Shown one piece after another: positions 42,525-45,305 of a stretch of DNA of 64,000 nucleotides. Position 1 is the stretch's first letter, and each line of letters starts with the position of its first letter. Source of the stretch: Escherichia coli (GTDB lineage: Bacteria > Pseudomonadota > Gammaproteobacteria > Enterobacterales > Enterobacteriaceae). Location of the stretch: the NCBI RefSeq assembly GCF_041248615.1, contig NZ_CP158426.1. One strand, given 5' to 3'. The notes under the pieces are model-generated. The model was not told the DNA's origin. It worked only from the letters and a program-made list of their open reading frames with translations, and did not search any database. A program made the position numbers and the translations under genes.

Positions 42525-44495
42525 ATGTATATGAATGTAATCAGAACTGTCATTTGTACATTAATTATAGTCCCGGTGGGACTACAGGCAGCGACCAGTC
42601 ATTCTTCTATGGCTAAAGATACAATCACCATTGTCGCGACAGGAAATCAGAACACGGTATTTGAAACGCCGTCGATGGTCAGTGTCGTCACGAATGACAC
42701 ACCGTGGAGTCAGAATGCGGTTACATCGGCCGGCATGCTGAAAGGTGTTGCCGGTCTCAGCCAGACTGGTGCAGGACGGACCAATGGGCAGACCTTTAAT
42801 CTACGCGGCTATGACAAAAGCGGGGTACTTGTTCTTGTTGACGGCGTCCGCCAACTCAGTGACATGGCAAAAAGCAGTGGCACTTATCTGGATCCGGCTC
42901 TTGTCAAACGTATCGAAGTTGTCCGCGGGCCAAACTCCAGTCTGTACGGCAGTGGCGGGCTGGGAGGTGTAGTGGACTTCAGAACTGCCGATGCAGCAGA
43001 TTTCCTTCCCCCCGGAGAGACAAACGGTTTAAGTCTGTGGGGAAATATTGCCAGTGGTGACCACAGCACAGGCTCGGGGCTCACCTGGTTCGGTAAAACC
43101 GGAAAAACAGATGCGCTCCTTTCTGTCATTATGCGTAAAAGAGGTAATATCTATCAAAGTGATGGTGAGCGCGCACCTAACAAGGAAAAACCTGCAGCCC
43201 TGTTTGCGAAAGGCTCTGTCGGTATAACAGACAGTAACAAAGCAGGTGCCAGCTTGCGTCTCTACCGGAATAACACCACTGAACCGGGCAATCCCACTCA
43301 GACACATGGTGACAGCGGCCTGCGTGACAGAAAAACAGTACAAAATGACGTACAGTTCTGGTACCAGTACGCTCCTGTGGATAACAGCCTCATCAATGTA
43401 AAGTCAACGTTATATCTCAGTGATATCACTATCAAGACAAACGGTCACAACAAAACGGCAGAATGGAGAAACAACAGAACCTCCGGTGTTAATGTTGTCA
43501 ACAGGAGTCATACTCTGATTTTTCCGGGAGCCCATCAGTTAAGTTATGGCGCTGAATATTACCGTCAGCAGCAGAAGCCAGAAGGCTCTGCCACACTATA
43601 TCCGGAAGGAAATATTGACTTTACATCGTTGTATTTCCAGGATGAAATGACAATGAAAAGCTACCCTGTTAACATTATCGTCGGTTCCCGCTATGACCGG
43701 TACAAGAGCTTCAATCCCCGTGCCGGAGAACTGAAAGCCGAACGCCTGTCCCCAAGGGCGGCGATTTCAGTCTCACCGACAGACTGGCTGATGATGTACG
43801 GCTCCATATCCTCTGCATTCCGAGCGCCCACAATGGCAGAAATGTACAGGGATGATGTACATTTTTACCGCAAGGGTAAACCCAATTACTGGGTTCCTAA
43901 CCTTAATCTGAAACCAGAAAATAACATCACCCGTGAGATTGGCGCAGGTATTCAACTGGATGGCCTGCTTACAGACAATGACCGGCTGCAGTTAAAAGGC
44001 GGATATTTCGGAACGGATGCCAGAAACTATATTGCCACACGCGTGGATATGAAACGGATGCGTTCTTATTCTTATAATGTATCCCGGGCCCGTATCTGGG
44101 GATGGGATATGCAGGGAAATTACCAGTCTGATTATGTTGACTGGGTGCTTTCTTATAACCGGACGGAAAGTATGGATGCCAGCAGCAGGGAATGGCTGGG
44201 CTCCGGCAATCCTGACACACTTATCAGTGACATCAGCATACCTGTTGGTCATAGAGGCGTTTATGCCGGATGGCGTGCTGAACTTTCAGCATCAGCCACG
44301 CATGTGAAAAAAGGCGACTCCTATCAGGCTGGCTATGCCATACATTCCTTTTCACTGTCTTATAAGCCTGTAAGTGTTAAAGGCTTTGAGGCGTCAGTAA
44401 CTCTGGATAATGCCTTCAACAAGCTTGCCATGAATGGCAAAGGTGTGCCGCTTTCAGGCCGAACTGTCAGTCTTTATACCCGTTATCAGTGGTAA
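42525..44495 (+). CDS. TonB-dependent outer-membrane receptor, heme/hemoglobin receptor family (ChuA/ShuA-like)
   Basis: 656 aa with signal peptide; TonB-box-like N-terminus, plug motifs (GYDKSGVLVLVDGVRQ; RIEVVRGPNSSLYGSGGLGGVV) and C-terminal ...YTRYQW; aligns along its length with ChuA but is clearly divergent. Confidence 0.8.
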   Translation: MYMNVIRTVICTLIIVPVGLQAATSHSSMAKDTITIVATGNQNTVFETPSMVSVVTNDTPWSQNAVTSAGMLKGVAGLSQTGAGRTNGQTFNLRGYDKSGVLVLVDGVRQLSDMAKSSGTYLDPALVKRIEVVRGPNSSLYGSGGLGGVVDFRTADAADFLPPGETNGLSLWGNIASGDHSTGSGLTWFGKTGKTDALLSVIMRKRGNIYQSDGERAPNKEKPAALFAKGSVGITDSNKAGASLRLYRNNTTEPGNPTQTHGDSGLRDRKTVQNDVQFWYQYAPVDNSLINVKSTLYLSDITIKTNGHNKTAEWRNNRTSGVNVVNRSHTLIFPGAHQLSYGAEYYRQQQKPEGSATLYPEGNIDFTSLYFQDEMTMKSYPVNIIVGSRYDRYKSFNPRAGELKAERLSPRAAISVSPTDWLMMYGSISSAFRAPTMAEMYRDDVHFYRKGKPNYWVPNLNLKPENNITREIGAGIQLDGLLTDNDRLQLKGGYFGTDARNYIATRVDMKRMRSYSYNVSRARIWGWDMQGNYQSDYVDWVLSYNRTESMDASSREWLGSGNPDTLISDISIPVGHRGVYAGWRAELSASATHVKKGDSYQAGYAIHSFSLSYKPVSVKGFEASVTLDNAFNKLAMNGKGVPLSGRTVSLYTRYQW

Positions 44496-44513
44496 CCTCT
44501 CAGGAAATAAATC

Positions 44514-45305
44514 ATGATGAAAAATACAGGCTATATCTTAGCTCTTTGTCTGACAGCATCGGGGCATGTCCTGGCCCATGATGTCTGGATTACCGGCAAA
44601 CAGGCAGAGAACAACGTTATCGCAGAGATTGGTTATGGTCATAATTTCCCCTCAAAGGGCACGATTCCTGACAGAAGGGATTTCTTTGAAACTCCCCGGC
44701 TTTATAACGGGAAAGAGACAATAACGCTGAAGCCAACATCCACGGATTATGTCTATAAAATTGAGTCTGCAGGCAACGGTAATAGCTACGTTCTGTCAAC
44801 GAAAATGAAACCGGGATACTGGTCGAGAACCTCGTCAGGATGGAAGCCTGTCAGCCGGGAGGGCAGAAATGATGTGGCATACTGTGAGTTTGTGACTAAA
44901 TATGCAAAATCTTTTATTCCTGGTGAACAGCAGATGCCAGCACAACTCTATCAGTATCCAATAGGGGATGAGCTTGAAATCATTCCGTTATCCGATATCA
45001 GTCGTTTCGGTGAAGATGTGAAGCTGAAAGTTCTGTATAAAACTTCCCCGCTTGCCGGAGCCACTCTGGAGCTTGACTCTGTCAGTTATCTGAAATCATC
45101 CCGCCATACTCATGCGGCAGAGCATAAACATTCGGCTCATAAAGCAGAACTTACCTTTGTAAGTAATGAGGACGGTATCATCACTGTACCCTCCCTTCAT
45201 GTCGGGCAATGGCTAGCTAAAGTCAAAAATAAGAAAGTATTTCAGGACAAAAACCTGTGTGATGAAACTGTCGATGTGGCAACCTTAAGCTTCTCCCGAA
45301 ATTAA
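44514..45305 (+). CDS. Periplasmic protein, possibly DUF4198 family (receptor-associated)
   Basis: 263 aa with signal peptide, 19 bp downstream of the receptor gene; the family call is from context and size only. Confidence 0.45.
   Translation: MMKNTGYILALCLTASGHVLAHDVWITGKQAENNVIAEIGYGHNFPSKGTIPDRRDFFETPRLYNGKETITLKPTSTDYVYKIESAGNGNSYVLSTKMKPGYWSRTSSGWKPVSREGRNDVAYCEFVTKYAKSFIPGEQQMPAQLYQYPIGDELEIIPLSDISRFGEDVKLKVLYKTSPLAGATLELDSVSYLKSSRHTHAAEHKHSAHKAELTFVSNEDGIITVPSLHVGQWLAKVKNKKVFQDKNLCDETVDVATLSFSRN

Follow-up and report, generated by a model that had tools for sequence, protein, structure and literature searches.

Within a 64,000-nucleotide stretch of Escherichia coli contig NZ_CP158426.1 (assembly GCF_041248615.1), analysed as a whole and hereafter called the window, two open reading frames lie in tandem on the plus strand, both at the coordinates assigned to them by a model-generated first-pass annotation of the same DNA. 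The first (42525-44495) encodes a TonB-dependent outer-membrane receptor of 656 amino acids, identified by its domains and alignment as a paralogue of ChuA/ShuA, and the second (44514-45305) encodes a candidate periplasmic metal-binding protein of 263 amino acids, assigned to DUF4198 by Pfam, profile searches and an AlphaFold2 model. The spacing of 19 bp given in the first-pass annotation is the distance from the receptor stop to the second start codon, the intergenic gap itself being 18 nt. The pair had been read as a haem receptor with a periplasmic partner. This reading is reconsidered here through features established in silico, namely gene structure, protein families, a box for the zinc-responsive repressor Zur and its conservation, the loss of the ChuA/ShuA histidine His86, the metal-brace residues of the partner and its fold.

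Organisation and mobility of the gene pair

The arrangement is real and does not reflect chance open reading frames, because, among 5426 complete E. coli genomes, 1117 contained at least 80% of a 3.2-kb query around the pair, on both chromosomes and plasmids, with matches at 1613 chromosomal and 1008 plasmid places. In strain AR_0085, where RefSeq annotates the same two genes, the stretch covered by this query is 100% identical, and the island that carries the pair is located at the selC tRNA gene.

Comparison by blastn with the copy on an IncF plasmid delimited a common stretch at 42442-45329 (plus strand, 94.8% identical), which includes the putative promoter and operator, the two genes and a hairpin. 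The stretch shared with the chromosomal copy of strain UTI89 extends over 42386-45418 (96.3% identical). Since the common stretch is bounded and its flanks differ in every host replicon and context, the receptor-DUF4198 unit behaves like a roughly 2.9-kb cassette that moves between pathogenicity islands and IncF plasmids. The GC-rich hairpin (CCTGCCCTG-TAATTTA-CGGGCAGG; 45316-45339, plus strand) begins 11 nt past the DUF4198 stop codon and was found with RNAfold, which gave -15.4 kcal/mol for 45306-45350. It has no U-run, was not called by a terminator scanner working with fixed rules, and is shared by the UTI89 copy, in which a gene for a COG0523 GTPase lies beyond it; a transcript end or a transcript stabiliser are both possible roles.

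A Zur box in the control region

Upstream of the receptor gene, the 23-bp site AAAATGTTATGTTATAACATTTT (42481-42503, plus strand) matches the gamma-proteobacterial Zur box consensus GAAATGTTATAWTATAACATTTC at 20 of 23 positions and ends 21 nt before the receptor ATG. It is the sole such site in the 64 kb, and none was found in 100 shuffles. The same consensus recovers the K-12 sites used for calibration with two (znuA/znuC), four (zinT) and six (ykgM) mismatches, compared with three for the window box. The 16-bp core of the latter, TGTTATGTTATAACAT, recurs unchanged in the K-12 ykgM site and in the hlyII box of strain J96, which is bound by purified E. coli Zur in gel-shift experiments. This consensus and the comparison with known operators were relied upon because other motif descriptions were either uninformative or unmatched: the degenerate motif RNNNYRNNRYNNYRNNNY fits the site and occurs 262 times in the window, and the 20-mer motif TRWNAYRWTATAWYRTNWCA gave no match at the site.

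A putative -35 element (TTGCAT, 42471-42476) and a putative -10 element (TATAAC, 42493-42498) were read from the plus strand with a 16-nt spacer between them, the -10 falling within the right half of the Zur box. The TTGCA of the -35 is conserved in the plasmid, UTI89, CFT073, E. coli variant (L008) and Klebsiella copies; a promoter scanner with fixed rules did not call the promoter, its -10 ending in C. The position of the box with respect to this -10 agrees with the published positions for znuC (-22 to -3) and zinT (-23 to -4) (PMC5916954). In operator class and in placement over the -10, the site thus resembles those of the known E. coli Zur regulon, for which reviews give only znuABC, zinT, rpmE2/rpmJ2 (ykgMO) and pliG, with hlyII added for J96. 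It differs from them in what it precedes, as no TonB-dependent receptor or DUF4198 protein is listed in these reviews and papers.

Orthologous two-gene units, located via homologues of the partner protein, occur in Salmonella enterica (on the chromosome), Providencia rettgeri, Klebsiella pneumoniae and a second type of E. coli, the copies of the IncF plasmid, UTI89 and CFT073 being three more. In the orthologous units, a receptor of 655-657 amino acids is followed by a DUF4198 protein of 263-269 amino acids. On the IncF plasmid and in UTI89, CFT073, the E. coli variant, Salmonella and Providencia, the Zur box again stands upstream of the receptor ATG, at a distance of 21-32 nt. It reads AAAATGTTATGTTATAACATTTC in S. 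enterica, with two mismatches, while four are found in UTI89 (AAAATGTTATGATATAACATAAC), on the IncF plasmid (AAAATGATATGTTATAACATATC) and in the E. coli variant (ACAATGTTATGATATAACATTGC), and six, with the core intact, in P. rettgeri (ATATTGTTATGTTATAACATAAC); the upstream region of CFT073 has the same core (...AAAATGTTATGATATAACATCAC). The upstream regions of Salmonella and Providencia showed no evident similarity to that of E. coli beyond the box. Conservation of the box in five genera or replicon types reads as a phylogenetic footprint for Zur control. Such control of the operon is very probable, and Zur would be expected to bind 42481-42503 in vivo.

Remoter DUF4198 relatives on metagenomic contigs (34-41% identity) also have Zur-like palindromes upstream; two of them lack a receptor gene, and in one the receptor gene follows ATP-binding cassette (ABC) transporter genes of the Sit/Yfe type. 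The metagenomic contig L017 (1-5807) carries a related receptor-DUF4198 pair, with the plug motif SDMDKSS and a DUF4198 protein 41% identical to that of the window. Four genes for a Sit/Yfe-type Mn/Fe ABC transporter directly precede this pair, and the znu-like operator sequence GATATGTTATATCATCACACT lies in between. As evidence for a cation substrate these ABC genes were given little weight, since they are of the Mn/Fe type and an operator-like site of their own separates them from the pair.

A Fur box upstream of 42525, which the first-pass annotation had proposed to look for, was not found. With the Fur consensus GATAATGATAATCATTATC and up to seven mismatches allowed, the best match in 42200-42560 agreed at 12 of 19 positions (seven mismatches), and a search across the window with three mismatches or fewer returned nothing credible. 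In silico scanning of nine loci (the window and eight relatives) gave best sites with 7-8 mismatches, none better than seven. The best Fur-like site of the whole window (29208-29226, 4/19 mismatches) falls, by correspondence with AR_0085, inside a phosphotransferase system IIA-type gene and is probably a chance match.

The receptor

Both the Plug (PF07715) and the TonB-dependent barrel (PF00593) domains were matched in the receptor, whose residues 32-656 align with the solved ChuA/ShuA structures (PDB 9DHE, 3FHH; HemR family) with E = 2e-166. Architecture and length are shared with these proteins, together with about 42% identity over the full length (41.9% to ChuA by MAFFT), a TonB box (here DTITIVA), the FRAP box, the loop-7 histidine (ChuA His420, corresponding to His446) and a C-terminal YQW. 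The signal peptide is likely cleaved between ...GLQA and ATSH. The first-pass description of a ChuA-like protein of reduced identity, distinct from chuA itself, is borne out by the full-length alignment, the identity value and a clade of its own. The stretch 42504-42533 offers no recognisable Shine-Dalgarno sequence, either for the ATG at 42525 or for an in-frame one at 42531; the same holds for the Salmonella orthologue, and the start codon at 42525 is putative.

In ChuA, ShuA and their relatives, the haem iron is clamped by two histidines, His86 at the plug apex and His420 in the loop. The window receptor departs from this at the plug apex, where GTDTGH(86)LN of ChuA is replaced by SDMAK(116)SS, so that His86 corresponds to Lys116. 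In an alignment of 24 full-length receptors, this position is a histidine in all 14 ChuA-type homologues (GTDTGH) and in none of the ten DUF4198-linked receptors with plug sequence, nine of which have lysine and one isoleucine; all ten conform to the motif (S/T/N)(D/G)M(A/D)(K/I)(S/G)S. The two groups are separated with a bootstrap of 100/100. The second loop box also differs: the window receptor has PNLNL for the NPNL of ChuA, and the Salmonella, Providencia and Klebsiella receptors have NPNL or NPDL. Unlike ChuA/ShuA, moreover, the window receptor has a Zur box in place of a Fur box, and is paired with a DUF4198 gene, with no linked genes of the chuSTUWXY type. The first-pass annotation had named a lack of the conserved haem-receptor histidines as a result that would speak against it, and here the outcome is divided: the loop histidine is kept as His446 and the plug histidine is lost. 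To judge from these comparisons, the clade represents a separate functional lineage and not simply one more haem receptor.

ZnuD/TdfJ of Neisseria (PDB 4RDR) offers a precedent for a haem-receptor-like TonB-dependent transporter under Zur control, with a metal ion at the position of the haem site. ZnuD and HasR have the same plug/loop haem-clamp geometry as His86 and His420 of ChuA/ShuA, and ZnuD, itself haem-receptor-like, binds zinc where HasR binds haem (PMC4557270). The PDB entry of ZnuD matches the window receptor over residues 49-198 (E = 3e-5). The zinc site of ZnuD is buried and made up of plug Asp/His and barrel Glu/His, with a His/Asp-rich surface loop in addition. In the window receptor, the loop histidine (His446) and a plug aspartate (Asp113) are present, and a plug histidine and a His-rich loop are absent; a further difference from ZnuD/TdfJ is that the window receptor gene shares its operon with a DUF4198 gene. 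The predicted pocket fits neither the haem nor the ZnuD template, and the receptor sequence does not reveal the substrate.

The DUF4198 partner

The partner scored 88.6 bits against PF10670 (DUF4198; cut-off 34) and matched no family in NCBIfam. It aligned over its full length with Zcp, the zinc-capture protein of Neisseria gonorrhoeae (NGO1049; PDB 9MHI-9MHO), with E = 3e-22 from the single sequence and 4e-81 from a profile. The AlphaFold2 model, built on 111 homologues, reached a mean predicted local distance difference test score of 91.3 and adopts the three-layer beta-sandwich of DUF4198. In a Foldseek search of the PDB, Zcp was the best match (E = 1.6e-19; template-modelling score 0.75-0.85), followed by IsDUF4198 from Ideonella sakaiensis (9GCB, labelled NikK; E = 1.7e-11). 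Zcp, with which the characterisation of DUF4198 proteins began, is a periplasmic dimer under Zur regulation, and each of its subunits binds one zinc via His29, His31 and His142 (PMC12663993). Family, fold, Sec signal peptide, an upstream Zur box and the disulfide cysteines (Cys124/Cys249, aligned to C127-C250 of Zcp) are common to the two proteins. The paper on Zcp makes no mention of zcp adjoining a receptor gene or sharing an operon with one, nor of E. coli homologues (PMC12663993).

That the partner is a secreted protein of the periplasmic type, as first annotated, is upheld by its N-terminal signal peptide and its co-conservation with the receptor. By the -3/-1 rule, cleavage is predicted between VLA and His22, which would leave an N-terminal histidine. 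His22 is invariant in the 111 homologues, the preceding Ala21 is conserved in at least 90%, and His43, in the motif GYGH, is found in 100 of the 111. A lipoprotein alternative based on Cys12 (in 'LALC') was rejected, given the non-canonical leucine at -1, a signal of just 11 residues and the family-wide A/H cleavage context. In the profile alignment, His22 and His43 pair with His1 and His18 of 9GCB, the N-terminal histidine and its companion through which IsDUF4198 binds Ni2+ with a dissociation constant (Kd) of 18 nM (PMC12537917). DUF4198 genes have also been noted to adjoin TonB receptor genes. IsDUF4198 differs from the window protein in other respects: the identity is 16% (structural alignment), its chain lacks some 50 residues and any His-rich loop, and it is a nickel binder with NikR-type neighbours and no Zur box.

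The His-rich loop, RHTHAAEHKHSAH, spans residues 197-209 of the partner, where AlphaFold2 confidence falls. Such a loop, variable in sequence and constant in composition, is also present in the seven nearest relatives included in the comparison, which come from E. coli, Klebsiella, Providencia and Salmonella, with one further sequence. The window protein is thus unlike Zcp in having the His22/His43 brace, the second position of which is a glutamate in Zcp, and an internal His-rich loop, without the His triad of Zcp. The Zcp paper describes a cluster 1 with the His triad and a cluster 2 with a C-terminal His tail, and the window protein fits neither description. Overall, the partner is probably a periplasmic metal binder. 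In the second E. coli type (L008/L009, 4009-6792), the receptor is 97.7% identical to that of the window and the DUF4198 protein only about 75%, the divergence being concentrated in the C-terminal 100 residues or so, His-rich loop included; this looks like either a recombination breakpoint inside the operon or a diversifying change of the partner.

Sister loci and flanking regions

In UTI89, where the receptor gene is UTI89_C1129, and in CFT073, the pair, which adjoins the iro/sfa-foc region, has after it a gene for a CobW/COG0523 GTPase of 399 amino acids (L013 8577-9776 in UTI89; L018 37574-38773 in CFT073). This gene is absent from the window past approximately 45418, its place being occupied by IS66 debris. 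The best NCBIfam match of the GTPase is the zinc metallochaperone ZigA (187 bits, under the equivalog cut-off), and 234 of the 5426 genomes have the complete gene, always on the chromosome. Zur regulons repeatedly include COG0523 genes. In CFT073 this GTPase gene is c1267, annotated as 'cobW', and it was among the candidate fitness genes of a transposon screen of systemic infection (PMC3855560). The UTI89/CFT073 protein has no CxCC motif, its cysteines being only at 171, 350 and 371; COG0523 members have been described as all having CxCC (PMC2770081).

Insertion sequence (IS) remnants flank the module on both sides in the window, as first annotated. Upstream and outside the module lies a frameshifted IS3-family transposase remnant (41018-42231, plus strand); its family was confirmed, and a closer tie to IS2, itself a member of the IS3 family, was not shown. 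Downstream, fragments and copies of the IS66 family extend over 45547-48297, comprising a TnpA fragment (45547-45723), tnpA/tnpB (45864-46609) and tnpC (46705-48297, minus strand). The window as a whole is a selC (tRNA-Sec) island and a near relative of the AR_0085 island, in rearranged form (11766-31272 and 45755-60135 compared): the blocks 11766-23676 and 23577-31272 are inverted with respect to AR_0085, with IS66/IS3 copies at the junctions.

Discussion

Iron or haem acquisition is no longer the best-supported function of this locus, because a Zur box stands where a Fur box was expected, the equivalent of His86 is lost and the partner comes from DUF4198, a family that binds metal cations; the earlier reading of a haem receptor serving iron uptake is probably wrong. 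We consider it moderately likely that the pair is a Zur-controlled, mobile metal-uptake module combining outer-membrane and periplasmic capture, most likely for zinc. Zinc as the transported metal is held with similar or slightly lower confidence. Along with the identity of the metal, the direction of transfer and contact between the two proteins are what we infer from the features described above.

According to the proposed mechanism, the two genes would form one operon, kept silent under zinc-replete conditions by Zur bound to the box over the -10, and zinc starvation would lift repression so that both proteins are made. The receptor, a member of the ChuA/HemR lineage minus the plug-apex histidine of the bis-His clamp and powered by TonB-ExbBD, would bring a zinc source over the outer membrane, either free Zn2+ or zinc on a small carrier or host protein. 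Once exported, the partner would capture the metal through the DUF4198 'histidine brace' formed by the N-terminal His22 and His43, aided by the flexible His-rich loop. It would then keep the metal available for import by ZnuA/ZinT-ZnuBC or for periplasmic zinc enzymes, in line with the proposal made for Zcp in Neisseria gonorrhoeae. As genes for TonB or an inner-membrane transporter are absent from the module, it would have to use the machinery of the core genome. A more specific version, to which only a slim chance is given, is zinc piracy by a re-tooled ChuA-derived receptor, which would import a zinc-loaded tetrapyrrole, for example Zn-protoporphyrin IX or Zn-coproporphyrin, or strip zinc from a host protein, for instance calprotectin, the metal then being taken by the brace and loop. 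The Zn-tetrapyrrole form would explain why a porphyrin-type pocket and the loop histidine were kept and the iron-specific bis-His clamp was lost.

Several observations weigh against a zinc-uptake module. The receptor by itself gives no positive pointer to zinc: it has only ten histidines, scattered and without a His-rich loop, and its score against the ZnuD model NF038289 is 46.7 bits (cut-off 950), with the plug region alone aligned. Unlike ZnuD/TdfJ, to which it is thus not orthologous, it lacks both a His/Asp-rich surface loop and a plug histidine that would match His100 of ZnuD. In the partner, the zinc triad of Zcp (H29/H31/H142) is replaced by Q30, E32 and E138, residues that are not conserved among its relatives. 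Zcp itself is dispensable for zinc import, so that a hand-off role is unestablished for any member of the family, and the sole biochemically characterised protein with a brace site, IsDUF4198, prefers nickel. As for regulation, the Zur box of the K. pneumoniae copy (L006, 3968-3990) is degenerate in its left half and preserved in its right half (7/23 mismatches), which suggests relaxed or altered control in that host. The UTI89 promoter region was recovered in a urine-induction screen, yet RT-qPCR (reverse-transcription quantitative PCR) gave lower expression in urine. Our literature search found no experiment on the locus.

The haem annotation has its own support, and a genuine haem or haemoglobin receptor for which zinc starvation acts as the switch, for instance as a host cue, with the DUF4198 protein either assisting periplasmic handling or unrelated, is regarded as unlikely without being far-fetched. 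The receptor passes the NCBIfam haem/haemoglobin-receptor subfamily TIGR01785 (414.1 bits, cut-off 316.85) in addition to its full-length alignment with ChuA/ShuA, and neither the FRAP box nor loop His446 varies. Met114, two residues ahead of the lost histidine, is conserved and could in principle serve as a haem axial ligand. Expression of ZnuD in E. coli is also reported to support the use of haem. In published work on plasmids and genomes, pRS218_019 (the plasmid copy) and its UTI89 counterpart are described as a 'haem/haemoglobin receptor, iron acquisition', but on homology alone. Against this stand the loss of the plug histidine throughout the clade, the lack of a Fur box at the nine loci scanned and the lack of linked haem-utilisation or haem ABC genes in the host contexts examined, while the family of the partner binds divalent cations and haem binding is unreported for DUF4198.

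Slightly less probable still is the uptake under Zur of another metal or chelate (nickel, cobalt, copper or a metallophore complex) bound by the DUF4198 brace. The nickel affinity of the equivalent His1/His18 site in IsDUF4198 is in its favour, as are the frequent location of DUF4198 genes next to TonB receptors and NikR, the ability of Zcp crystals to take up Cu, Co and Ni, and the one related pair found beside a Sit/Yfe-type Mn/Fe transporter (L017). The Zur-regulated Pseudomonas cluster PA2911-2914 is moreover reported to import cobalt-pyochelin. Yet the operator is a Zur box and not one for NikR, Fur or another regulator, no NikR or nickel-enzyme genes are linked, and both the ZigA-like GTPase of the sister loci and the homology to Zcp favour zinc. 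A reading of the pair as a passenger in decay within IS-rich islands, without a current transport role and perhaps only a colicin or phage receptor, appears very improbable. The surrounding IS remnants, the missing COG0523 gene and the lack of an obvious Shine-Dalgarno sequence ahead of the receptor ATG would agree with decay, but both frames are intact here and in 1117 genomes, the pair and its operator are conserved across genera at 40-50% protein identity, and the key residues are invariant.

A zinc-uptake module of this kind would combine known kinds of component, Zur-regulated TonB-dependent zinc transporters and Zcp-type proteins, and would not represent a new category. Reviews of zinc handling in E. 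coli cover ZnuABC, ZupT, ZinT and, in some strains, yersiniabactin, with no dedicated outer-membrane zinc transporter. Our literature search found no paper that links the pair to Zur or zinc and none that describes the module; an earlier in silico prediction is possible.

If the zinc reading is correct, about 20% of complete E. coli genomes would carry an outer-membrane zinc system on mobile DNA, the carriers including the uropathogenic prototypes CFT073 and UTI89 and IncF virulence plasmids of the pUTI89/pRS218 type. Papers and databases now count the receptor among iron-acquisition or haem-receptor genes, and the change would affect virulence-gene inventories, lists of 'iron receptors' as vaccine targets and the interpretation of nutritional immunity (calprotectin). 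It would also provide a second, genetically tractable DUF4198 model; as this protein is encoded beside its presumptive outer-membrane partner, the fate of the metal on Zcp-like proteins would become directly testable. Should the zinc-piracy version hold, the module would constitute a previously unrecognised, horizontally mobile zinc route in extraintestinal pathogenic E. coli and the first outer-membrane zinc transporter in the species.

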